The position numbers and the translations under genes were made by a program. Below, one piece after another: positions 1 through 64,000 of a stretch of DNA of 64,000 nt (within the stretch, counting starts at the first letter, position 1; each line of letters opens with the position of its first letter). The DNA comes from a virus. Lineage: Duplodnaviria > Caudoviricetes. The stretch lies in the IMG/VR virus record IMGVR_UViG_3300011337_000669; one strand, 5' to 3'. The notes beneath the pieces are model-generated. The model was not told the DNA's origin, made no database searches, and saw nothing but the letters and a program-made list of their open reading frames with translations.

Positions 1-216
1 CATTAAAGCTACTTGTACAGTAGTAAACCAATCATGACTATCGAAACTTTTAATCCAATTACTAAAGTTGAATGAGGTGTCAGGCCGTAATATACCAATA
101 CCAGTCAAGACTTGTTCATTCGTAATGTTTTCAGTCAAAGTCTTGGACACGTTATAATTCATAATCAATTTTATTCTTTCAAATAAATCGTGACTTTCTG
201 ATATTTTTTTTGGCAT
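1..216 (-). CDS. Partial protein (runs off left edge) with MPKKISESHDLFERIKLIMNYNVSKTLTEN leader
   Basis: Manual translation of the reverse strand; not in ORF track. TATTTAT motif upstream at 236-242. Confidence 0.7.
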   Translation of the reverse strand, partial: MPKKISESHDLFERIKLIMNYNVSKTLTENITNEQVLTGIGILRPDTSFNFSNWIKSFDSHDWFTTVQVALM

Positions 217-264: not shown

Positions 265-579
265 ATGATATCAAGAGGAAGCCAAATTACGAATGTAAGA
301 AATAATACTATCCACATTGTTGACGATATCGAAGTCATCAATGGAGAAAAATTAATATTCACGGAGGATACAAAATGTTTTCCATACCATGAATGTGAAT
401 TAGTCCAAAATTCCTCTATTGAACACACAAATTTCACTAAAAATTTGATTGATAATCTAAAACATTCCGAATTGGATTTGGGGGAATGGTCCCCTCGTGA
501 ATTTATTCCTAAACCAAAAATAAAGAAAAACTTTTTATCCCGTTTTTGGGATAAAATTATTTACACCTTTACCTACTAA
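265..579 (+). CDS. Hypothetical protein
   Basis: 104-aa ORF filling the gap between neighbours. Confidence 0.55.
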   Translation: MISRGSQITNVRNNTIHIVDDIEVINGEKLIFTEDTKCFPYHECELVQNSSIEHTNFTKNLIDNLKHSELDLGEWSPREFIPKPKIKKNFLSRFWDKIIYTFTY

Positions 580-7684: not shown

Positions 7685-8020
7685 TCAATAATCAGTTAAA
7701 ATAACGGAACCATCAGGAGAATACGCTTCAATCCAAAATTGATTGTTATATCGAGGAATTCCCAAATAATATAAAAAATCTATTCCTATATATTGAGATA
7801 TAAGATAATAAGGGTCGAATTCTTTCTCATACATATTTTTTTCAGTAATCGAATCATCATTCAGGTATACGGCAACTTTGTAGTTATCAAGCTTTCTGCG
7901 ACCTTTTCGACCCTCACCGACGTAAGTAATCTCAACACGATCCACCATAGGATAAACATTCTTTAACAAAGAAGAATTCGCAATCTTATTCAACGCCTTT
8001 AATTCTTGATCACTTAACAT
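7685..8020 (-). CDS. Hypothetical protein
   Basis: ORF; TATTTAT at 8025-8031. Confidence 0.65.
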   Translation of the reverse strand: MLSDQELKALNKIANSSLLKNVYPMVDRVEITYVGEGRKGRRKLDNYKVAVYLNDDSITEKNMYEKEFDPYYLISQYIGIDFLYYLGIPRYNNQFWIEAYSPDGSVILTDY

Positions 8021-8039
8021 ATCAATAAATATCTATTAT

Positions 8040-8092
8040 CCAAAAAAGGGGTTGGGGATTAGAACGACCGAAGGGAGAAATCGAATCCGAAT
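8040..8092. repeat. Dispersed intergenic repeat, copy A
   Basis: CCAAAAAAGGGGTTGGGGATTAGAACGACCGAAGGGAGAA. Confidence 0.9.
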
Positions 8093-8143
8093 ATATTTTA
8101 CATACACACAATAATGTACTACATTTGTTCCAAACAAAGAAAA

Positions 8144-9460: not shown

Positions 9461-9482
9461 ATATCAATAAATATCAATTATC

Positions 9483-9535
9483 CCAAAAAGGGGCTGGGGA
9501 TTAGAACGACCGAAGGGAGAACGAACGGATCCGAA
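9483..9535. repeat. Dispersed intergenic repeat, copy B
   Basis: CCAAAAAGGGGCTGGGGATTAGAACGACCGAAGGGAGAA. Confidence 0.9.
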
Positions 9536-9542
9536 CAACAAT

Positions 9543-9572
9543 AAAAAAACCCACCTTTATGGGGTGGGGATT
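9543..9572 (-). terminator. Intrinsic terminator (same family as 5641 and 6310)
   Basis: CCCACCTTTATGGGGTGGGG identical core. Confidence 0.8.
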
Positions 9573-9581
9573 AAACTTTAA

Positions 9582-11431: not shown

Positions 11432-11488
11432 ACAGTTATAAATATAATTCATTTATCGTGGAAAATAAAATAATTAGACACAAATATC

Positions 11489-11550
11489 CAAAAAAGGGGT
11501 TGGGGATTAGAACGACCGAAGGGAGAACGGACGGGGCGGTATACGAATAA
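11489..11550. repeat. Dispersed intergenic repeat, copy C
   Basis: Identical to copy A over 40 bp. Confidence 0.9.
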
Positions 11551-11573
11551 CAACAGATAAGATACGAATATCT

Positions 11574-11929: not shown

Positions 11930-11992
11930 CCAAAAAGGGGATGGGGATTCTCACGACCGAAGGGAGAACGGACGAAGCGGTATACGAATAAC
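11930..11992. repeat. Dispersed intergenic repeat, copy D
   Basis: CCAAAAAGGGGATGGGGATTCTCACGACCGAAGGGAGAA; shares GCGGTATACGAATAAC tail with copy C. Confidence 0.88.
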
Positions 11993-11994
11993 GA

Positions 11995-14237: not shown

Positions 14238-15034
14238 TATATATACTAAATCTATCATGTGGATAAATATACATTCGGAACATATAAAAATAAAGGAGAA
14301 TCATTGTGCCAACAATGTATCCACACACTGACATTCTGTCTGTAGGGGGCAACATGGTGAATACCGACCGAAGGTTGGGGAAAACTTTTTCCATTGTGGA
14401 TAAATAAATAGGGGGAAAAACTTGACTTTGTCATAATGTCAGGGGAGCGTTACATGGGGGATAATCCCTTTGAGGGGTTTTGGGTCCCCCACTCTTTACC
14501 ACTTTCCCCCACCATTAGTACTGAATTCATGGCTGGTTATAGTGTAGTGACCACTTTTTTCCCCCTGACGATAGTGTGAAGACCATATTTTTACTATACG
14601 TAAAACCTAGCAAAAAAAGGAATAGTAAGTGTAACCCCGCGTGAGTGAACGTAGTGAACCTTTAACCCCCCCTTCAACGAATCCCATAGGTTATTATGGT
14701 TCATATGACCTGACTATTATTGTCCCCTTCAACGACATATCGTAGATGGTGGGAGAATGTGGGAGTTATACCTGATGGGGTTTAATTGTTTACCGAAGGT
14801 ATTGTTTTGTACCCCATAGGGTATAGGACTATATGTGAAATAATATATGTTAATTCGGATCCCCACCGAATAGGTGGTGCTTATTTAACATCTCACCTTC
14901 ACACAATATCACCATGTCATTCGATGTCCTGTCATTTGGCGGGGGACAATAGTTAGGCGGGGACAGTTTGTCCCCATGTATAACTCTCCAAATGTGTGTT
15001 AAAAAATGAGTTTTGGAAGATTATACAACAAGAG

Positions 15035-17760: not shown

Positions 17761-17764
17761 CTAT

Positions 17765-17805
17765 CATATGCCGGGTTCGATTACCCCCGACCCCCTTTTT
17801 TATTT
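17765..17805 (+). repeat. Upstream element, copy E (related to repeat A-D)
   Basis: CATATGCCGGGTTCGATTACCCCCGACCCCCTTTTTTATTT. Confidence 0.75.
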
Positions 17806-17822
17806 TATCGATATTTATTACT

Positions 17823-18134: not shown

Positions 18135-18139
18135 TCTGT

Positions 18140-18181
18140 CATATGCCGGGGTCGATTATCCCCCAACCCCCTTTTTTATTT
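18140..18181 (+). repeat. Upstream element, copy F
   Basis: CATATGCCGGGGTCGATTATCCCCCAACCCCCTTTTTTATTT. Confidence 0.75.
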
Positions 18182-18197
18182 CCTTATATTTATCTAT

Positions 18198-19683: not shown

Positions 19684-20325
19684 TTAAATGTTGGAGATAT
19701 AGTGATCGTAAATCTCATCGTATATTGAATGATTCTTTACTAACTCCATTATCTTTGGCTCTAGCACTTCACTTATTTTTAACTGTTCTTCGTGTTCCCC
19801 TCCTATTTCATCGGCAACAAAATCTCTTGTTGCTGAGAATATAACCCTTTCTAAAAAATCATCGAAGTTGTTGAATCTACGTGGTGATAACCAGTCATAT
19901 GAAGCTTCGATATAATCAAGTAAAGCATCCATTCTTCTTTTAACAAGAAGTAATTCTTTAGATTCATTTATGTCTTCAGATTCATCTCTTGTTGGATACT
20001 TTTTCGAATCGTAATGTTCTTTGATTTTTCTGAATAACCTTTTATCGTTACGTAATGATACAAAGGCAAATGGGAGTAACTCCTCTATTTCATCTCTTTT
20101 CACAAGAATATCATTAAATTCGAAGAAACCATCTATTGAATGTCTCAATACTAACTTAAGATAGTCTTCAAAACTATCTATGTCTTCTATGAATTCATCC
20201 ATCCACTCGAAAGAAGTAAGGAGAACATCAAGAAATTCATCTTGTCTTCTCTTAAAAAACATATCACGGCTTTCGTTAATCCCCATGACTTCCTTAATCC
20301 TATTTATGTCTTCACGCAAATTCAT
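19684..20325 (-). CDS. MNLREDINRIKEVMG-leader protein with 2 tandem domain copies
   Basis: KRR.D motif twice; TATTTAT upstream. Confidence 0.8.
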   Translation of the reverse strand: MNLREDINRIKEVMGINESRDMFFKRRQDEFLDVLLTSFEWMDEFIEDIDSFEDYLKLVLRHSIDGFFEFNDILVKRDEIEELLPFAFVSLRNDKRLFRKIKEHYDSKKYPTRDESEDINESKELLLVKRRMDALLDYIEASYDWLSPRRFNNFDDFLERVIFSATRDFVADEIGGEHEEQLKISEVLEPKIMELVKNHSIYDEIYDHYISNI

Positions 20326-30172: not shown

Positions 30173-30249
30173 ATCTTCGTCGTTTGTCTTACAAATATAA
30201 TTAAATTCCGAACAATAAAAAAAAATCCCCTACTTTTTTTAGTAGGGGA

Positions 30250-30500
30250 AGTTAGAAAAATAAGAAGAGGGTTTACGACCCTCCACATTGATGACCGAAC
30301 TTATATATTCAGTCAGATATCTTAAGTTGAATAACTTCTAAAAAAAAGTCCCACAAACTCCTTCTCTCTCGAACTCTCATTTGTGGGACAAATGTTTCAC
30401 AAACATAGTAAGAATATTTTATTATATCAAACTAAAATGAAACTTTTTGTGGGGGTGTTGAATCTCTCGACTCAGTTTTATAAATATAAGTAAGTTTAAT
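30250..30500 (-). ncRNA. Candidate small RNA(s) in an ORF-free gap
   Basis: Two promoter-like motifs and several hairpins (GTCCCACAAA/TTTGTGGGAC, GACTGAA/TTCGGTC, GAGGGT/ACCCTC). Confidence 0.3.
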
Positions 30501-30506
30501 AAAAAA

Positions 30507-40007: not shown

Positions 40008-40069
40008 GTTTAAGTAAGAGGGATATATGAGAGGGACAATTTTTTTGTCCCTTTTTTGTATTTATTAAT

Positions 40070-56279: not shown

Positions 56280-57051
56280 GACTTCTTACGTAACTGAGTC
56301 TTTTCTTTTCGGTATCATTAAAATTTGGTTCATCTTCCAATCCATCCATAATTGTATCCAAGTCGGAAAATTCATCCTTTAGCTCTTCATAATTTTCAAC
56401 TATCTCAGGTTGTAGTGGTCCAAATTTTTGTTCGTTCAGTTTTCTCAATTCATCTTCCAACTTTTCCAATTCTTCTTTGGTTGGTGTATATTTTTCTTGG
56501 TCAATCTGAGCTTCCATCTTACCTGCCTGAATACTCAATTGGTCAATATCTAAAACCTGCTGAGGTTGTGGTGTTGAAACTTTTTTCTTCTCGTCTTCTT
56601 CAAATTTTACTAACATGTGTAAGAATGAAAGAGAGATTATTGGTAACATTCCACCAGCAAACAAAGATAAAAATCTCTTATGACCAACATAATCACCTGA
56701 TTCAACTCCCAAGTATGAAACCAATGGGTCAACTAAATCAACCCAATCCTTAAACGCTGGTGAATTAATATCAATGTATTGATAAGCAAAGAAGATATTT
56801 CCAATGAATTGTATAAGAGTTACAATACCAAACGGGAAATATACCTTAGACCCCATCTGAGCAGATATTGCCGCAAGTGCTGACAAAGCAGCAATTTCAA
56901 TACCAACAGACAAATATATTGACCAACTAACAGGATTTGACAATCCATACCAAGAAGTAACGTGAGATATGGAAACAAATGCCACAGTTAAAATTGGAAC
57001 AAGGAATGAAATATAAATTATTGCTTTGAAATTCTTCTGAACCCAATTCAT
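56272..57051 (-). CDS. Multi-pass membrane protein with charged tail (holin-like candidate)
   Basis: About 4 TM segments; SISHV..WY; next to amidase. Confidence 0.55.
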   Translation of the reverse strand: MNWVQKNFKAIIYISFLVPILTVAFVSISHVTSWYGLSNPVSWSIYLSVGIEIAALSALAAISAQMGSKVYFPFGIVTLIQFIGNIFFAYQYIDINSPAFKDWVDLVDPLVSYLGVESGDYVGHKRFLSLFAGGMLPIISLSFLHMLVKFEEDEKKKVSTPQPQQVLDIDQLSIQAGKMEAQIDQEKYTPTKEELEKLEDELRKLNEQKFGPLQPEIVENYEELKDEFSDLDTIMDGLEDEPNFNDTEKKRLSYVRSHG

Positions 57052-57335
57052 TTTCTCTGTGATTTAAGTTTCTTTATCTCATCTTCGATTTCAGTTTGTC
57101 TTCTAACATCGAATAATTTTCTGTCAGTTGCCTGAATCATTCTTTTCTCGGCTTCTAATCCTGAAATTTGTAATTCAATATTTAATTCTTGTTTGGTGTA
57201 TGTCGAGTCTTTGATTGCGGTTACTTCCTGTCTCACTTTGGTCAATTCTCTTGAATCTCCACAGGACTTAAATAAGGTAAGTAAAGTAATTACCAATACG
57301 ATAATCACGAAGTTGTTTTCTATAAATTTTTTCAT
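57048..57335 (-). CDS. TM plus coiled-coil protein
   Basis: N-terminal TM ending in FKSCG (possible lipobox). Confidence 0.6.
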   Translation of the reverse strand: MKKFIENNFVIIVLVITLLTLFKSCGDSRELTKVRQEVTAIKDSTYTKQELNIELQISGLEAEKRMIQATDRKLFDVRRQTEIEDEIKKLKSQRK

Positions 57336-57404
57336 GTCGATTTTATTTTAATTTATCCTTAAAATATAAAAGGTGTACTTAATAAATACACCCTTTATCA
57401 CATT

Positions 57405-58202
57405 TTACAAATAATCGAACAGAGAAGCCGTTTCGTTTCTTAATTTTCTCAAAGCCTTTTCTTTAATCTGTCTTACTCGTTCCTTAGTCAAATCAAAGTC
57501 ACTACCGATGTCCTCAAGAGTTCTGGTTGAACCAGATAACCCAAAATAATCTTCGATGATAACCTTTTCCCTTTCATCCAAAACATTTAACATGTTCAAA
57601 AGTTTTTCTTTCAGGGTGTCATCTGTAGATAAATTTTTATCCGCCGAATCTGCATTAGGGTTAACCAAAATGTCCAACAGTGTATCCCCTTCTTCATTGA
57701 GGGGATTATCCAAATTAATTGTATAAGGTAAACTCACCATTTTATCGGGTAATGCGACTCCAGCTTTTTCAAGTTCCTTCTTAGCTTTATGAAGTTCTTG
57801 AACAACGTTTACTGGTAGACGAATAGTACGAGCATTCTCATTCAATGATTGCAAGATAGATTGTCTAACCCACCATACCGCATATGAAATAAATCTAAGT
57901 CTTTTCGTCCAATCGAAATTCTCAATCGCCTTCATTAGACCAAGATTACCCTCAGCAATCAAGTCACTCAAATCTAAACCTTGATTTTGATATTGTTTTG
58001 ACACTGTAATCACAAAACGTAAGTTTCCTACCAACAATTCTTTTTGGATTTCTTTCTTCTCTTCTTCTGTGATAACACCTGACAACATTCTCTCAGCTAG
58101 CTCACGCTCCCTCTCAGGAGTCATGACTCTAATCTTTCTGATGTCTTTCAGATAATGACTAATCTCTTCTTGATTGATTGGAATTGATGATTTTTCTTTC
58201 AT
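57405..58202 (-). CDS. Sigma-70 family factor, short Bacteroidota RpoD-like
   Basis: YLKDI; NLRFV..V.KQYQNQGL.L.DLI.EGNLGL; RFISYAVWWVRQSILQ; TKERVRQIKEKALRKLR. Confidence 0.95.
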   Translation of the reverse strand: MKEKSSIPINQEEISHYLKDIRKIRVMTPERERELAERMLSGVITEEEKKEIQKELLVGNLRFVITVSKQYQNQGLDLSDLIAEGNLGLMKAIENFDWTKRLRFISYAVWWVRQSILQSLNENARTIRLPVNVVQELHKAKKELEKAGVALPDKMVSLPYTINLDNPLNEEGDTLLDILVNPNADSADKNLSTDDTLKEKLLNMLNVLDEREKVIIEDYFGLSGSTRTLEDIGSDFDLTKERVRQIKEKALRKLRNETASLFDYL

Positions 58203-58203
58203 A

Positions 58204-58779
58204 TTAGTTATTGCTGTAGTTTTGAAGTAGAGTTAATTCGTGTTTGGTAAGGGAGTCCATTCCTAAGACATTTATCTTATCCAAGATGGTATCCAAAGTT
58301 GTTTTAGTTGCAGGAGTACCCATCCATTGTGAAATCTTAGCCTTAATCTCTGAATGCAAGTCGTTTGGAAGATTTATTTCGTTTGAAAAACTTATGTCAA
58401 TATCGTCATCCTCATCATAGTCACTATATAAATCAGTATTCTCAACAACACCTTTCATGTCGATTGAATAGTCATTATTCTGACCAGGATTATCTAAATC
58501 AAATAAATGTCCAGATCTTTCGTAAGGGACGTGAACTGACACTTTGTCAGATACTTCTGTCAAAATTAGTATTTCACTATCAACATGGATAAGCCCAATG
58601 ATATATTCAAAGATTTCGTCTTTAGGAACCTCTGTTGCGAAGTGCATCATTATAATTCCTCCTCCGAATTGATACTTCATGTTTGGTGAATCCACCAATG
58701 GCGCGACTGCCATTACCAGTTGATTACAACTTTCGTCTGTAATAAAATTACCAATAACTGTGGCTAAGTAGTTTTTCAT
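58204..58779 (-). CDS. Hypothetical protein
   Basis: C-terminal LD.ILDKI...G..SLT..E...L; TATCTTTG upstream. Confidence 0.65.
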   Translation of the reverse strand: MKNYLATVIGNFITDESCNQLVMAVAPLVDSPNMKYQFGGGIIMMHFATEVPKDEIFEYIIGLIHVDSEILILTEVSDKVSVHVPYERSGHLFDLDNPGQNNDYSIDMKGVVENTDLYSDYDEDDDIDISFSNEINLPNDLHSEIKAKISQWMGTPATKTTLDTILDKINVLGMDSLTKHELTLLQNYSNN

Positions 58780-58795
58780 ATTTTACGTTTAATTT

Positions 58796-59296
58796 TTACA
58801 AAGATACTAATTTTCTATTACTCTCAAAATAAACTCTTCCTTTTGTTCCTGAATGTTGCTCGTACCACTTACCCTCTTTATCTTTCCAAACATATGGATT
58901 GGTCGGGTCAACACTCCACCTATACTGAGAATAGAAGTCGAAGTCTTTTTTTAATAGATTGGATTTGTGTGAGTCATGAAACTTTTGGTTACCAAACCAA
59001 TCAGGATAAGTCACCTCCTCATCGATATCCTCCTTATCCATTGTGTTCTTGAATCCACGACTAACCCACTCATCAATACTCGCATTCAAGTACATCTTAA
59101 GAAGTGGTACATGGTTTCTCCACATAACAGAGCATGGATGGTTAATCCACCCTTTGTAGGGGGTACCATCCAACTTTAATCTGCCAGTGATTGCACTAAT
59201 AATTTGATAGGTTTCAACTCGTTGTTTGCCAAGTCTCTTGTTATCAAGGACTCTGAGTGATTCGATTAAATCTGCGTATGGTAGAAATGTTTGCAT
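58796..59296 (-). CDS. Pyrimidine-dimer DNA glycosylase (DenV-like/MSMEG_6728 family)
   Basis: MQTFLPY..LD.KRLGKQRVE..QI; NHP...MW; H.SH.SNLL.KD. Confidence 0.88.
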   Translation of the reverse strand: MQTFLPYADLIESLRVLDNKRLGKQRVETYQIISAITGRLKLDGTPYKGWINHPCSVMWRNHVPLLKMYLNASIDEWVSRGFKNTMDKEDIDEEVTYPDWFGNQKFHDSHKSNLLKKDFDFYSQYRWSVDPTNPYVWKDKEGKWYEQHSGTKGRVYFESNRKLVSL

Positions 59297-59323
59297 ACCA
59301 CAAAGATATGGATTAATTTGATA

Positions 59324-59803
59324 TTAGCTCAACATTAAATTCGATAATCCATCTATTTTAATTTTACAAGCCAAATAACTCTCGTAATTCAAATATGTTG
59401 GATTTTGTTTTGCAACAACTGTAACCTTACTATGCTCATGTTTCGATAACTTAACAGTAGAGCAATACTTTTTCAAAATTTGGATGAACTTACTCAATTC
59501 CATATTCTCATCCCTATCCAACTCAGAAAAGATAAATTTCATTGCCTTACTTCTTTGAATGAAGTGGTCATCAACCAACTCAGATAACTCAATATTTTTT
59601 GCGGACTCAGACATTAACCCAGTCTTGAAAAATTTACAGTTAGTTACATCCCAAATCGGATTTCTGTTTCTAACAAAAAACTGTCTTAACTTAGTTTCAT
59701 CACCTTTAATACTTCTATAACGTATCAGTAATACCTTGAAATCTTCCAAAGTTTCCTCGATTTTGAATAATTGATTATGATTTAGATCTCCTTTCATAAA
59801 CAC
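59324..59803 (-). CDS. Hypothetical protein, possibly HNH-like
   Basis: VDDH...TVKLSKHEH; TATCTTTG 5 nt upstream. Confidence 0.55.
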   Translation of the reverse strand: MFMKGDLNHNQLFKIEETLEDFKVLLIRYRSIKGDETKLRQFFVRNRNPIWDVTNCKFFKTGLMSESAKNIELSELVDDHFIQRSKAMKFIFSELDRDENMELSKFIQILKKYCSTVKLSKHEHSKVTVVAKQNPTYLNYESYLACKIKIDGLSNLMLS

Positions 59804-59836
59804 AAAGATAATGGTTTTATTTTATACTGTCAAATT

Positions 59837-59863
59837 AAAAACCCCACCGTTGAAGGTGGGGTC
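59837..59863 (-). terminator. Intrinsic terminator
   Basis: ACCCCACC-GTTGAA-GGTGGGGT. Confidence 0.8.
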
Positions 59864-59868
59864 TATTA

Positions 59869-60792
59869 CTACTTCTTCAAGAAACCAAGTTCATACACCA
59901 ATGGTCTCATTCTATCTTCAAGGTTCTTATACAACTTACGGAACTCTTTGAAATCTTCTTGAAAATATTCTTTCCAAACTAATTTGAGTTGAGCATATCC
60001 TGCGTCCCACGAGTTAAGGTGGTTTTCTTCGTTTGCCATAACTTGACGAAGTTCCATAGATTTCTCAACAAGTTCTGTAGCTTTATCCAAAACTAATTTT
60101 GCATCAGGAGAAAGTTTACCATAAATTCTTTCTTCACCAAATAGAAGTTTGTGAACATAACGATCGGGAGATGTTCTCGCGTCGTTGTAAAGTTCATCAT
60201 ATCCGTTTTGGTCCGCAAGTTCTTTCATCTTGTCCACAGACATCCAAAAGAATTCGTTTTTGATGTCCCATAGTCTATGCTTGTATTCCACTTGACGTAG
60301 AGAGGATTGTTCTGACGAGTTATTGAATAAGGAGTAAATCATAGAATCAACCATAAATTGATTGTATCTTTCATGATTTTCATTAGGTGCAAAATACTCA
60401 TCTTTATCATTGAGCCAATCTCCATTGATAGATTTTCTTGCACAGAATAAAACCAAAACCTTTTTTAGATTTTCTTTAGTGATAGATAAACCTGATTTAT
60501 TACTAAAGGCTGAAGAAAACAACGAAACATTAGTTCCGTTATAATAAACATTATTACCCGCATTGAAAAAATATCCAAAGGCTCCTTCACAAAGTTTACT
60601 ATAACCCTTTTGTTTAACCTTCAAAGCCGAACTCAATTTCGGAAAATCGAGATTACTTTTTTTCCCTTTAATTTCCTTTCTAACCCAAGTTGATGCGGTT
60701 ATTTTGCCATCTACATTGTAAATTGATTTGGTTCCAAGATTTTCAATATCTCCAAAACCTTTATTCTCTAAAATATCAAATTTGTATTCCAT
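59869..60792 (-). CDS. Probable C-terminal/specificity part of a split type IIG-like R-M enzyme
   Basis: Directly follows the MTase ORF; RKSI...W.ND.DEY.AP and NEFFWMS segments. Confidence 0.55.
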   Translation of the reverse strand: MEYKFDILENKGFGDIENLGTKSIYNVDGKITASTWVRKEIKGKKSNLDFPKLSSALKVKQKGYSKLCEGAFGYFFNAGNNVYYNGTNVSLFSSAFSNKSGLSITKENLKKVLVLFCARKSINGDWLNDKDEYFAPNENHERYNQFMVDSMIYSLFNNSSEQSSLRQVEYKHRLWDIKNEFFWMSVDKMKELADQNGYDELYNDARTSPDRYVHKLLFGEERIYGKLSPDAKLVLDKATELVEKSMELRQVMANEENHLNSWDAGYAQLKLVWKEYFQEDFKEFRKLYKNLEDRMRPLVYELGFLKK

Positions 60793-60811
60793 AACGCTAA
60801 GGTATATTAAA

Positions 60812-62299
60812 TTATTTAATTTTCAAAATGGAAAAAGAAACCCCCCATTTAGTTGAAACATCATCAAATTCAGAGGCTTTGAATATAAACCCCTTTTCGA
60901 AAGTGAATTGATTTAAGGTTTTGTTTCTGAAAATTTCAAAATCAATTCCTGAAAACATAAGTGGTTTACTAAAAACCGCAATATTCATCTTTCCTAATTT
61001 TGTAATCCTATAAATAAATTGGGAGTATAGGTTTTTAACTGACATACCCATCTTTTCTTCGTTCATACTAATTTTTACTTTAGTATTTTCTACTTCGTTT
61101 TTTGAAGACCCACCATCATTCACAATGTTTTTGAAATCATTTACAGTCGCATATGGTGGATTCATCAAAACAATAATATCTTTACCTTCTTCAATCGCTC
61201 TCTTTAATCCGGTTGGAAGTTTTTCATAGTCATCATTCAAAAAGTCATATTGAAACTTGACCGCCTCAGTATTATATCCCATTTGATTTGCAGTATCAAT
61301 ATCGGATTGATTAAGAGTTGAAACATAAAGTTCTTTGAACTTGTAATCACGGGTAAGATTACCTGTTCCCCAAGCTGGGTCCCATACTACATATTTCTCT
61401 TTCCAATCTTCACCAAAAACCGATGCAACATACTCATGGGCTTTGTCCACCCAAATTGCAGGTGTGAAGAACTCACCTTGTTTACGACGAGTAGTATCTT
61501 CAACAATACGGTCAACCACCGCAGCCAACTTGTGCTTTTGTGATGGTGTATAAGAAGATGAGAAGTGACCGAAAAACGATTCAAAAGCATCCCTCGATAC
61601 AATGGATACTTCACCAAATGATTTGGTTACAACGGTCTTTCTTTTCTTCACAGGATGAAGATAATTATCATCTTTGTTCACCAAAATTTGAACGAATAAA
61701 TTTGCTCTTTCATTCGTAGTCAATTTGTTTTTACCCAATACTTTCTCATCAAAGTAACGGAATACCTCAGTGATATTTTTATCAGTAACAAGAACTCTTC
61801 GTTGAACATTATCGGTCAAGTCTTTAACTTTTTGAACACATTCCATAAAGTCGTCAGAACTGTAAACAAATGGTCTGATTGACTCATCTTTCATCATAGC
61901 CAAAACTAATTCAGCAATGTTATGAGCAGAAGATGGTGCGGTATTCCAATTCAAGTCCATTTCAAGATACTTGATTACATCATTAACGTGTAACGTGAGG
62001 CATTCATTTCTATCCCCAATGAAAATTGTGGTAGGTGGAATAATTCCCTTGTCATAAAAACGTTTAATATAAAACACAGATTGAGCAAGGACCTTCACCA
62101 AATCTGACTTGTTAGAGAGATTGATGTCATCCTTGTACTCCATAAGAACTCTTACCTTATCAGATTTGGAAACACCAAACCCATCACATCCAAATGGAGA
62201 AGTAATCTCCATATCCTTGAATTTCTTGAGGAAATTGTGACGGTAGGTGTTCTCTACATCTTTTTCGTTTATAGCGGAAGTCAATACGTTTGTCATCAT
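60812..62299 (-). CDS. Type IIG-like endonuclease-methyltransferase, N-terminal part
   Basis: N-terminal CDG...LMEYK nuclease-like motif; QGEFFTP, WDPAWGTGNL, LMNPPY. Confidence 0.8.
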   Translation of the reverse strand: MMTNVLTSAINEKDVENTYRHNFLKKFKDMEITSPFGCDGFGVSKSDKVRVLMEYKDDINLSNKSDLVKVLAQSVFYIKRFYDKGIIPPTTIFIGDRNECLTLHVNDVIKYLEMDLNWNTAPSSAHNIAELVLAMMKDESIRPFVYSSDDFMECVQKVKDLTDNVQRRVLVTDKNITEVFRYFDEKVLGKNKLTTNERANLFVQILVNKDDNYLHPVKKRKTVVTKSFGEVSIVSRDAFESFFGHFSSSYTPSQKHKLAAVVDRIVEDTTRRKQGEFFTPAIWVDKAHEYVASVFGEDWKEKYVVWDPAWGTGNLTRDYKFKELYVSTLNQSDIDTANQMGYNTEAVKFQYDFLNDDYEKLPTGLKRAIEEGKDIIVLMNPPYATVNDFKNIVNDGGSSKNEVENTKVKISMNEEKMGMSVKNLYSQFIYRITKLGKMNIAVFSKPLMFSGIDFEIFRNKTLNQFTFEKGFIFKASEFDDVSTKWGVSFSILKIK

Positions 62300-62350
62300 G
62301 ATGCTAATGTAATCATAATTAATTTAGATACAAAAAAAAAAATCTCACAA

Positions 62351-64000
62351 TTATTGTGAGACTTTTGAAATGTTGTCAATCTTGGTGATTCTGACCGTGT
62401 TATTTGCCCAATTATTTACTAAAGGGTTGTGGGTAATAACGAATATCTTTTCAAAATAGTCTTTCATCTTTGTAAAAAACTCGCCTACCATTTCCAAATT
62501 ATCATTCGATATCTTTCCGAAGACCTCGTCCCAAACAATTACATTTGCCTTTGGTAAAGAACATACCTTAGACAATACGGCTCTCAATGCCATTGCCGCA
62601 ATTGTTCGTTCGTAACCAGACCCTGAAACCATAAGTTTTTCAACACCAGTCGAGTTATCGATCATTATGAACTCAACCTCATTCTTGTCATTGATTCGAA
62701 TCTCCAAGTTAAAGTAAGCCGAATCCTGTAAAAGTCTTTGAAGTTCAGAATTAATTAGAGGAATCAAGGTCTTCATAATCACTTTGGTGATTCCATTCTT
62801 ACCGTATACTTCAACATAGATTTTATAAATCTTCTCTCTTTCGAACTCTTCAGCAATTTTCAAGATGAGGTCTTTATTCTTTTCGATTCTTGATTCAATA
62901 GTTTCAATATGAGTTGAGTTTGTATTTTGAACTTTTTCGTAACCTCGTTTCTCATTAATCAATTCGTCAATACGTAATCCCGCCTTTAACAACTGAGCAT
63001 CAATCTCATTGTTCTTCTTGATTTTGTCTTGGACTTCCTCATATCTTTTGAGTTTATCTTTGACTTGTTCCAATTTGAGTTGAGTGGATTCCAAAGATAA
63101 CTCATATTTTTCTTTTATGAGCTTGTTTCTCTCATATTCATCGAAGTCCTTCTTGAGTTGTGTAAAGGATTGTTCTTTCTTTTCGTACCCATCAATTTCT
63201 TCTTTAAAGTCTTGAACAAGTCTTTTGAATGAATCGAGTTGTTTAATTTTCTCGTTGGTCAATTTAGCTTCCATCAACTTGATACCACAATGGTCACATT
63301 GAATTCCATCACCATACTTTTCAATAAGGTCTTGAATTTCCTCAACTTTATTCTCGCAAGTAACAAGTTCAGCGAATCTTGATTTGATAACCTCTTTTAC
63401 GTTATCATGTTTATCCTCATGATAAAATTCTTTGGGTTCAACTATCTTAATACTCTTGATGTCCTGTTCGGTCTTTTGTTTCGAGTCCTCTAAGTTGCTT
63501 ATCGAAGATTGTAATAACAATGGATTCAAGGTAATGAGTTCTTTATCCAAATCAGTGAATTTGGATTTCAACAAATTATCTTTATAATCCTGCCCCTTCT
63601 GAAGTCTTTTGTCGACATCTGAGATGTTTTTGGACATCTCGATAATCTCATCCTTCATTCGGATAATCTCCTCACCAGAGGTCTGATTATCCTGTTTAAG
63701 AGACTCTGTATTATACACATTAGAAATCATTCCTTTGGAGAATTCAGAATAAAGTTCTTTACCAGTCTCTTCCTTTTTCTTAAGGAATTCTAAGCCCAAG
63801 AATCGAGTTAATACCTGTCCACGAGCAGTTGGTTTTGCGTCCAACAAATCCTCAAGGTTGGATGCTGTTGTAACAATGGTCATCAAAAAGTCTTCCATAC
63901 TTCCGATGGATTTCTTCATGAAGTTTTCTGTCTCACGTCTTTGTTCACCAGTGAAGTTTTGAAGTTGACCATCAGCAAGTTTCTTGAAGAACTCAAGTTC
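62351..64000 (-). CDS. SbcC/Rad50/T4 gp46-like recombination ATPase (5' end outside window)
   Basis: Coiled coil with CDHC zinc hook; SGSGYE signature; Walker B VWDEVFG; VITH. Confidence 0.9.
   Translation of the reverse strand, partial: ELEFFKKLADGQLQNFTGEQRRETENFMKKSIGSMEDFLMTIVTTASNLEDLLDAKPTARGQVLTRFLGLEFLKKKEETGKELYSEFSKGMISNVYNTESLKQDNQTSGEEIIRMKDEIIEMSKNISDVDKRLQKGQDYKDNLLKSKFTDLDKELITLNPLLLQSSISNLEDSKQKTEQDIKSIKIVEPKEFYHEDKHDNVKEVIKSRFAELVTCENKVEEIQDLIEKYGDGIQCDHCGIKLMEAKLTNEKIKQLDSFKRLVQDFKEEIDGYEKKEQSFTQLKKDFDEYERNKLIKEKYELSLESTQLKLEQVKDKLKRYEEVQDKIKKNNEIDAQLLKAGLRIDELINEKRGYEKVQNTNSTHIETIESRIEKNKDLILKIAEEFEREKIYKIYVEVYGKNGITKVIMKTLIPLINSELQRLLQDSAYFNLEIRINDKNEVEFIMIDNSTGVEKLMVSGSGYERTIAAMALRAVLSKVCSLPKANVIVWDEVFGKISNDNLEMVGEFFTKMKDYFEKIFVITHNPLVNNWANNTVRITKIDNISKVSQ

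Follow-up and report, generated by a model that had tools for sequence, protein, structure and literature searches.

The DNA examined here is a 64,000-nucleotide stretch of the IMG/VR virus record IMGVR_UViG_3300011337_000669 (Duplodnaviria; Caudoviricetes), hereafter the window. It carries a gene for an RpoD-like sigma factor together with two recurrent upstream motifs, TAnnTTTG (class 1) and TATTTAT (class 2), and the question raised by this locus is which sigma factor reads which box. A preliminary description of the sequence had proposed that the phage sigma, or another phage factor, redirects host RNA polymerase from the first element to the second. Here, we find that the two promoter classes are both real, that the encoded protein truly belongs to the sigma-70 family, resembles the SigA of Bacteroidota, and has no region 1.1, and that complete relatives of the window encode a second, gp55-like sigma factor. 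From the comparison of these sequences, we favor, with a probability of roughly 0.55, a reading in which the host-derived sigma would act on class 1 promoters and the gp55-like sigma would act on late TATTTAT promoters. The assignment of sigma factors to boxes, the timing of transcription, and the transcription start sites are what we infer; the motifs and proteins are observed.

The window has a G+C content of ∼33% and tightly packed genes, mostly on the minus strand, and deposited phages gave no close match to it. The comparison genome, G001, is a complete 326-kb relative from IMG/VR that is collinear with window positions 580 to 64000 at a nucleotide identity of 75 to 92% and whose major capsid protein and portal are of the T4 type; a second complete relative measures 321 kb, and locus counts over relatives were taken from 80 related loci. 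A phage RNA polymerase was not found in G001 in T7-like and beta-subunit searches, of which the T7-like search was run without a positive control. Only 23 of 398 genes are preceded by a Shine-Dalgarno-like 4-mer, a rarity that is expected for a Bacteroidota host. We presume that the family carrying the window sigma consists of T4-like jumbo lake phages infecting Bacteroidota.

Several lines of evidence support the assignment of the window sigma. First, the Pfam profiles Sigma70_r1_2 (residues 15 to 42, 9.7e-07, above the cut-off), Sigma70_r2 (residues 60 to 125, 1.2e-14), and Sigma70 r4 (residues 205 to 256, 2e-14) match the protein, PDB chains of SigA/RpoD align to residues 12 to 264 (4e-47), and phrog_351 is matched at 1.1e-52. 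The 14 residues that precede region 1.2 leave no room for region 1.1. Second, in MAFFT alignments the protein is 48% identical to SigA of Bacteroides finegoldii and 47% identical to that of Hymenobacter versus 35% for Escherichia coli sigma-70, and in a tblastn search of a plasmid collection the top eight cellular matches were all Bacteroidota RpoD/SigA (41 to 42.5%), with Firmicutes and others at 34 to 37%. Third, in a small maximum-likelihood tree, the phage sigma clade is sister to two Bacteroidota SigA proteins with a support of 100/98, albeit on a long stem branch (1.66). Fourth, the DNA-recognition residues are of the Bacteroidota type: region 2.4 reads RQSILQ(A/S)L in the window sigma and in Bacteroidota SigA, compared to RQAITRSI in E. 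coli. In region 4.2, the recognition helix T(R/K)ERVRQIKEKA is near-identical between the window sigma and Bacteroidota SigA. The preliminary description had recognized a Bacteroidota-type RpoD without region 1.1, and the domain matches, identities, and tree bear this out. Because the residues of regions 2.4 and 4.2 are of the Bacteroidota type, the protein is predicted to bind the host core enzyme and to read bipartite class 1 promoters of the phage DNA.

The window sigma also differs from its cellular counterparts. It has 265 residues compared to 286 to 287 in SigA of Bacteroides and Hymenobacter; ∼20 residues of region 3.0/3.1 that are present in Bacteroidota and E. coli are missing while a 3.2-like segment is kept, and a complete region 3 was not recognized (no Pfam r3 match at E ≤ 0.01). 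Moreover, six residues are inserted after region 1.2, region 1.2 itself reads YLKDIRK instead of the YLQEIGR of Bacteroidota SigA, and W/K/R/L replace E/R/G/F in region 2.3. NCBIfam equivalog models for RpoD/RpoS gave at best 183 to 184 bits, far below their cut-offs of 379 to 572 (RpoD, 555 to 572). The profile hidden Markov model of the gp55-like family described below gave only 4.9 bits, and the protein does not have the sigma-2-only architecture of gp55. Relatives of the window sigma are found by the thousands at 70 to 97% identity in metagenomes and on IMG/VR contigs as long as 326 kb, and the core- and DNA-binding regions examined are intact and conserved in relatives of 53 to 97% identity. 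An ESM Atlas search with the protein returned viral clusters only. A scan of genome contigs with phage-specific sigma peptides recovered distant non-Bacteroidota sigmas only and is uninformative on origin, and matches labeled "human fecal Bacteriophage sp." were rejected as Bacteroidota references, as they are Firmicutes-type SigA genes of 360 to 385 residues. Altogether, these features would fit a Bacteroidota SigA-type sigma that was captured from a host by T4-like jumbo lake phages and then trimmed.

The class 1 motif occurs in sense orientation at 8120, 12741, 17394, 22330, 26615, 30192, 45312, 58799, 59301, and 59803, so that each site listed in the preliminary description has a match. 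While the raw number of TAnnTTTG matches in the window is only in mild excess (112 versus 88 ± 8 expected), the motif is enriched in upstream regions, both in the window (12 of 102 regions versus 3.1 expected) and in G001 (25 versus 12.1 expected). Over the 80 related loci, TAnnTTTG followed by four nucleotides and ATG forms a sharp peak with 80 occurrences. Among 39 sites in the window and G001 that lie outside long open reading frames (ORFs) and ahead of ATGs, a T/T/(T,G)/(T,G) element is conserved 23 to 20 nt before the box, i.e., a TTTG-like element ∼20 nt upstream. The published Bacteroidota promoter consensus is −33 TTTG/−7 TAnnTTTG (PMC9723704, PMC7366714), and the upstream element corresponds to its −33 TTTG. 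Box and upstream element thus agree with the earlier suggestion that class 1 matches this consensus. The SigA box of Flavobacterium psychrophilum occupies −12 to −5 (PMC9723704); therefore, a TAnnTTTG box ending 4 nt before an ATG predicts an mRNA starting at the A of the AUG. Class 1 promoters would be read by host SigA and/or the window paralog, and we consider it somewhat better than an even bet, judging from the conserved recognition residues and from the enrichment of class 1 in phages that carry the gene, that the window sigma serves promoters of this type, supplementing or replacing host SigA.

The class 2 motif is the more strongly enriched. TATTTAT occurs 61 times in the window (38.7 ± 5.8 expected) and is the top de novo upstream 7-mer, present in 21 of 104 upstream regions versus 0.98 expected; TTTGTAA, the class 1 tail, ranks third. 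With three to seven nucleotides between box and ATG, there are 23 occurrences where 3.7 ± 1.9 are expected. In agreement with the preliminary description, the box precedes more than 20 genes, including those bearing an MKYII(S/T)E leader at 8018, 9458, 11904, 17823, and 18198; the genes behind it comprise tail-fibre, head-tail adaptor-like, and wall-hydrolase-domain genes as well as leader-bearing small genes. The 88 TATTTAT sites of G001 have a bimodal spacing to the ATG, with 22, 10, and 4 sites at 4, 5, and 6 nt and a second mode at 12 to 20 nt, and at orthologous G001 sites the box and its spacing are retained while the flanks have changed. Boxes also stand directly after terminator hairpins and in divergent intergenic regions. 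Variants with a single mismatch have no spacing peak. No −35/−33-like conservation was detected at TATTTAT sites, where conservation is limited to a purine directly preceding the box and a patch rich in T 13 to 16 nt upstream. The two promoter classes proposed in the preliminary description are thus supported. Searching the literature for a phage promoter of the sequence TATTTAT yielded nothing relevant.

The position of the box relative to the start site can be read from sites with long spacers, in which A is conserved at the fifth and sixth positions after the box (36 of 47 and 38 of 47 sites). This conserved A coincides with the position of the A of the ATG at sites with a 4-nt spacer and, therefore, suggests that transcription starts 5 nt past the box, which would place TATTTAT at −11 to −5. 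The suggestion that the two classes align on their shared TTT is not supported: in both, precisely 4 nt separate the box from the ATG or from the conserved A, and this shared end point places TATTTAT at −11 to −5 and TAnnTTTG at −12 to −5. A start site shifted by one base is nevertheless conceivable. The dominant spacing of 4 to 6 nt resembles the constraint on a ribosome-binding site and, as the presumed hosts make no use of Shine-Dalgarno sequences (23 of 398 genes, see above), there would be room for another signal; TATTTAT might then be an RNA-level element next to the start codon, i.e., a translation enhancer or a protein-binding site, rather than a promoter. We regard this as very improbable because 12 to 20 nt separate half of the sites from the ATG and this distance reaches 46 nt at a conserved site within a hairpin, because the distance differs widely among orthologous genes, and because the A that is conserved 5 nt past the box where leaders are long agrees with a start site. 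Furthermore, TAnnTTTG, a bona fide promoter box, has the same 4-nt peak, and TATTTAT boxes occur after terminators and in divergent gaps in which a promoter is required. We, therefore, suggest that TATTTAT is a separate, phage-specific late promoter consisting of a strict single 7-bp element at approximately −11 to −5 without a −35 partner. It precedes tail-fibre, virion-cargo, and lysis genes, and ∼40% of the boxes are near enough to the start codon for the mRNA to be expected to begin at the AUG.

The preliminary description had also noted a reverse-complement relation to the T4 late box. TATTTATA is indeed the reverse complement of the T4 late box TATAAATA; however, the final A is present in only 14 of the 61 TATTTAT sites. 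We rejected TATTTAT as a T4 promoter on the opposite strand on this ground and because the boxes are sense-oriented directly before start codons. We also rejected the T4 geometry (−13 to −6) at sites with a 4- or 5-nt spacer, at which the start would fall within the ATG. TATAAATA itself shows no spacing peak. At 236 to 243, in the divergent gap 217 to 264 between the ORFs 1 to 216 (minus strand) and 265 to 579 (plus strand), a minus-strand TATTTATA gives an exact plus-strand TATAAATA at a distance of 22 nt from the plus-strand ATG; this match is probably a reverse-complement coincidence.

If TATTTAT is a late promoter, a reader is needed, and the complete relatives offer a candidate. In G001, an ORF at 126664 to 127410 that encodes 248 residues gathers all of the weak matches to Pfam Sigma70_r2, T4 gp55, and phrog_234, and in both complete relatives a single ORF collects the sigma-region-2, gp55, and gp55-PHROG matches. 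The family of this protein has 1174 representative clusters; among PDB chains, its profile matched region 2 of SigA (0.0025) and gp55 (0.15), and hhalign of the family against T4 gp55 gave an E-value of 1e-4. An AlphaFold (AF2) model of the 248-residue protein has a pLDDT (predicted local distance difference test) score of 90.7, the top 50 Foldseek matches of this model are all sigma factors, and it superimposes on the gp55 chain of the T4 late open complex (7d7c_F) with a Z score of 10.9 and a root-mean-square deviation of 3.4 Å over 115 residues. The preliminary description had advised looking for a gp55-like gene elsewhere, and this is such a gene. It lies among glycosyltransferase genes, ∼155 kb from the RpoD-like sigma gene in the complete relatives, and among top matches the gp55-like sigma is 95 to 100% identical versus 88 to 97% for the RpoD paralog. 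A search for a second gp55 family, phrog_12791, found nothing. We propose this gp55-like sigma as the probable reader of TATTTAT, an assignment that we hold with more confidence than that of the window sigma to class 1.

The cultured Flavobacterium phage vB_FspM_immuto_2-6A (immuto; 160 kb, complete) provides a comparative contrast. A tblastn search of deposited phages with the gp55-like protein of G001 found nothing; a more distant family member, P0362, reached immuto, the gp118 of which belongs to the gp55-like family (E 1e-37). By contrast, immuto has no RpoD-like sigma: Sigma70_r2 had no match at E ≤ 1, and tblastn of immuto with the window sigma or Bacteroides SigA gave nothing below E 1.7. 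Among 7-mers upstream of immuto genes, TATTTAT is present in 33 of 219 regions versus 1.7 expected, second only to the overlapping ATATTTA, whereas TAnnTTTG is not enriched (3 versus 4.8 expected). In this one contrast, TATTTAT appears to accompany the gp55-like sigma without a need for the RpoD paralog, and class 1 appears to accompany the paralog. The immuto upstream regions are also enriched for TCAATAAT/ATAATTAA-type words, present in 15 to 28 regions versus 0.7 to 2 expected, which may represent a second, non-TAnnTTTG promoter class of this phage.

The same contrast bears on whether the RpoD paralog is itself the late sigma, shifting the host core from TAnnTTTG to TATTTAT while the 248-residue protein does something else. 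Such a shift would suit a paralog that differs from SigA in region 1.2 (plus the insert) and region 2.3 and lacks region 3.0/3.1, the equal 4-nt start distance of both boxes is the geometry of sigma-70/SigA and not that of T4, the gene lies downstream of a gp46-like gene as does T4 gene 55, and class 1 promoters drive the paralog, as an early-to-late cascade requires. We nevertheless consider it decidedly unlikely. Immuto has TATTTAT without any RpoD-like sigma, TAnnTTTG is enriched only in paralog-carrying phages, and a gp55-like sigma is encoded elsewhere in the complete relatives. Moreover, region 2.4 of the paralog is identical to the host type, TATTTAT has no −33/−35 element although the paralog retains a host-type region 4.2, and the invariant bases of TATTTAT cannot provide both A at −11 and T at −7, as only the variable preceding base (A in 64%) could do so. 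Of the idea that a phage sigma or another factor redirects host polymerase, the hedge toward another phage factor has thus stood, while a role for the RpoD paralog in reading TATTTAT is disfavored by immuto and by the missing −35 element.

A third possibility is that the paralog reads neither class and instead serves a third, middle class of promoters or, together with the DUF6576 protein encoded next to it, competes with host SigA in a shut-off or as a decoy. Of the 137 larger intergenic regions of G001, some 80 lack both boxes, the virus-only DUF6576 partner is conserved and translationally coupled in 61 of the 80 loci, and the partial loss of region 3 could impair normal initiation. On the other hand, k-mer enrichment yielded no third motif, every core- or DNA-binding region examined is intact and conserved across relatives of 53 to 97% identity, and the enrichment of class 1 follows the presence of the paralog. 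We judge this possibility unlikely, if less so than a paralog shifted to TATTTAT.

Several observations weigh against the division of labor that we favor. The RpoD-like sigma gene, rather than the gp55-like one, lies downstream of a gp46-like gene at roughly the position of T4 gene 55; the one-strand gene order from the gp46-like gene to sigma in window 55674 to 64000 resembles T4 46-47-...-55 (T4 25 to 41 kb). The geometry of TATTTAT (−11 to −5) matches host SigA rather than T4 (−13 to −6). The changes in regions 1.2 and 2.3 and the partial loss of region 3 could alter the specificity of the paralog. The immuto contrast is based on one cultured phage without the paralog, and on those contigs of the window's own family that are long enough (the three longest; the rest are fragments) both sigmas co-occur and are inseparable. 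In whole-chain alignments, the C-terminal helical domain of the gp55-like protein (approximately residues 158 to 247) aligns with sigma region 4; therefore, the argument that a promoter without a −35 element calls for a sigma without region 4 is weaker than in T4. The protein could be a natural fusion of gp55 and a flap-binding module. Finally, gp33 (phrog_254) and gp45 (phrog_223) had no match in the two complete relatives, both being proteins that diverge fast and may thus have been missed.

The genes around the sigma gene (Table 1) suggest how it is expressed. A single base separates the DUF6576 gene from the sigma start codon, a DUF6576 homolog lies immediately upstream of sigma in 61 of the 80 related loci, and the closest Atlas clusters of the protein are 98 to 100% viral. 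Immuto, which has no RpoD-like sigma, has no DUF6576 homolog. The sigma may have a partner or a regulator in the DUF6576 protein. The class 1 box nearest to this gene is a candidate for the nearest promoter of the pair, and the geometry of the box ahead of the denV-like gene predicts a leaderless mRNA. Sigma and DUF6576 would be co-transcribed from host-type class 1 promoters with TTTG ∼19 to 20 nt upstream of TAnnTTTG, and transcription from class 1 promoters would imply that the sigma is probably made early or in mid-infection.

Table 1. Features of the window discussed in the text. Coordinates are window positions.
Feature	Position	Strand	Remarks
Class 2 box	8025..8031	-	4 nt before ATG; after GC hairpin and T run, in divergent intergenic region; retained in G001
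Class 2 box	17812..17818	+	4 nt before ATG of leader-bearing gene (MKYIISE...)
Class 2 box	40059..40065	+	4 nt before ATG; directly after terminator hairpin
Class 2 box	53343..53349	-	A-rich 15-nt spacer, before 551-aa ORF
Probable lysis cassette	55674..57335	-	ORFs of 95 aa, 259 aa (coiled-coil), and 201 aa (Amidase_2 endolysin)
Terminator-like hairpin after sigma stop	57366..57398	-	15-bp stem, then U-rich; -17.1 kcal/mol, z -4.2
RpoD/SigA-like sigma, 265 aa	57405..58202	-	Regions 1.2, 2.1-2.4, shortened 3, 4.1-4.2; without 1.1
DUF6576 protein, virus-only family	58204..58779	-	Pfam DUF6576 2.3e-07
T4 denV-like pyrimidine-dimer DNA glycosylase	58796..59296	-	Pfam Pyr_excise 2e-21; same direction as sigma
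Class 1 box TATCTTTG	58799..58806	-	19 nt before DUF6576 ATG; kept in G001 (282646, 18-nt spacer)
Class 1 box TATCTTTG	59301..59308	-	4 nt before denV-like ATG
Class 1 promoter	59803..59833	-	TTGACA, 17 nt spacer, TATCTTTG; 5 nt before ATG, right after terminator
Intrinsic-terminator-like hairpin	59839..59864	-	10 pairs (6 G-C), then T run; upstream of class 1 promoters

On its other side, the sigma gene is followed by the TATTTAT-containing hairpin that the preliminary description had placed ahead of the lysis genes, and the folding energy and z score of this structure (Table 1) confirm it. The box at 57382 to 57388 extends from the last part of the 5′ arm into the loop. Among relatives, TATTTAT is kept ahead of the gene after sigma, the first of the probable lysis cassette, with spacers to the ATG of 4, 15, 18, 20, or 46 nt. 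Where the hairpin is present, its stem co-varies, two clades having GGGTGTAT/ATACACC and CCTTCTAT/ATAGAAGG, respectively. The retention of the box at varied distances and the co-variation of the stem argue against a purely translational role of TATTTAT. The hairpin is best taken as a candidate terminator ending the sigma operon, into which the late promoter of the lysis cassette would extend. Of the downstream ORFs, the endolysin matches Amidase_2 in Pfam at 8e-08, the family matches of the coiled-coil ORF are weak, and the 95-aa ORF looks membrane- or lipoprotein-like from its N-terminus.

Two kinds of repeated elements lie next to class 2 boxes. A GC-rich intergenic element, tctcccttcggtcgttctaatcccca(a/g)cccctttttgg, is found just upstream of TATTTAT at 8021 to 8113, 9461 to 9581, 11453 to 11573, and 11955 to 11994; its end is terminator-like, and its first half is conserved as well. 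Two copies of a tRNA T-arm-like core, gccgggttcgatta-cccccgaccccc, with a T run, at 17761 to 17822 and 18135 to 18197, lie directly upstream of genes with TATTTAT 4 nt before the ATG; ARAGORN found no tRNA in the window. Separately, four stretches (49280 to 49900, 14435 to 14785, 30173 to 30506, and 19845 to 20179) of 330 to 620 nt have no ORF of at least 50 codons in an otherwise densely coding genome and might contain RNA genes or tiny ORFs.

Compared to known systems, the window sigma resembles Bacteroidota SigA/sigma-ABfr in having no region 1.1, a similar length, 47 to 48% identity, and the same region 2.4, and the phage class 1 boxes have the Bacteroidota consensus and its −12 to −5 position (PMC9723704, PMC7366714). 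Unlike Bacteroidota SigA, it is phage-encoded, is partly deleted for region 3.0/3.1, has a 6-residue insert and substitutions in regions 1.2 and 2.3, and sits on a long branch. T4-like "group 2" jumbo phages have been described to have no RNA polymerase of their own, a minimal sigma and, sometimes, an RpoD-like sigma probably acquired from cells (PMC7824862). The gene content described here, with a minimal and an RpoD-like sigma, is that of the group 2 jumbo phages of Iyer et al. 2021 (PMC7824862). The sigma gene is thus an expected feature of T4-like jumbo phages, and our findings refine existing knowledge. The earlier work made no promoter assignment and called gp33 universal, which we did not reproduce with the PHROG model, and the "minimal" sigma found here has an extra C-terminal domain, unlike in that description. 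We set aside as a comparison the large freshwater Bacteroidota "moraphages" (PMC12619734), for which a core sigma is mentioned, as their lineage lies outside the T4 group and no promoter data are given.

The T4 late promoter is a strict 8-bp TATAAATA box without a −35 element that is read by gp55 together with gp33 and the gp45 clamp (PMC2988020). TATTTAT is similar in that it, too, is one strict AT-rich element that lacks a −35 partner, and its near-perfect copies number in the dozens, face either way, and stand before virion and lysis genes, in phages with a gp55-like sigma-2 domain. It differs in sequence from TATAAATA, in its position (−11 to −5, not −13 to −6), and in the many leaderless mRNAs that are predicted. 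Likewise, the putative late sigma has 248 residues and a C-terminal domain compared to the 185 residues of T4 gp55, and gp33 and gp45 were not detected.

In the cascade of Bacillus phage SPO1, gp28 and then gp33/34 are divergent sigmas that read clearly different boxes. The switch proposed in the preliminary description would be similar in that a phage sigma-70-family protein made from host-type promoters reprograms the host core; unlike in SPO1, the window sigma keeps host-type DNA-recognition residues. A more specific scenario, which we put forward tentatively and consider unlikely as a whole, is that the trimmed sigma is a private one that, with DUF6576, sustains TAnnTTTG transcription once the phage has inactivated or outcompeted host SigA while the gp55-like sigma runs leaderless late genes, the two forming a division of labor between sigma factors so far undescribed in Bacteroidota phages, or else that the trimmed sigma has shifted to TATTTAT.

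Bacteroidota phages are abundant in lakes, oceans, and guts, and their transcription control is almost unexplored; their hosts have unusual promoters and no Shine-Dalgarno-led translation. In these hosts, 3.7 to 5.5% of mRNAs have short leaders or are leaderless (PMC9723704, PMC7366714), so that predicted leaderless late mRNAs at ∼40% of the TATTTAT boxes would be unusually frequent. Altogether, our findings suggest a three-part model in which host-type promoters would be served, possibly, by a phage sigma, a strict TATTTAT late box would be read by a distant relative of gp55, and many late mRNAs would be leaderless. Because immuto is cultured and has both the box and the gp55-like gene, the late half of this model is open to tests at the bench.

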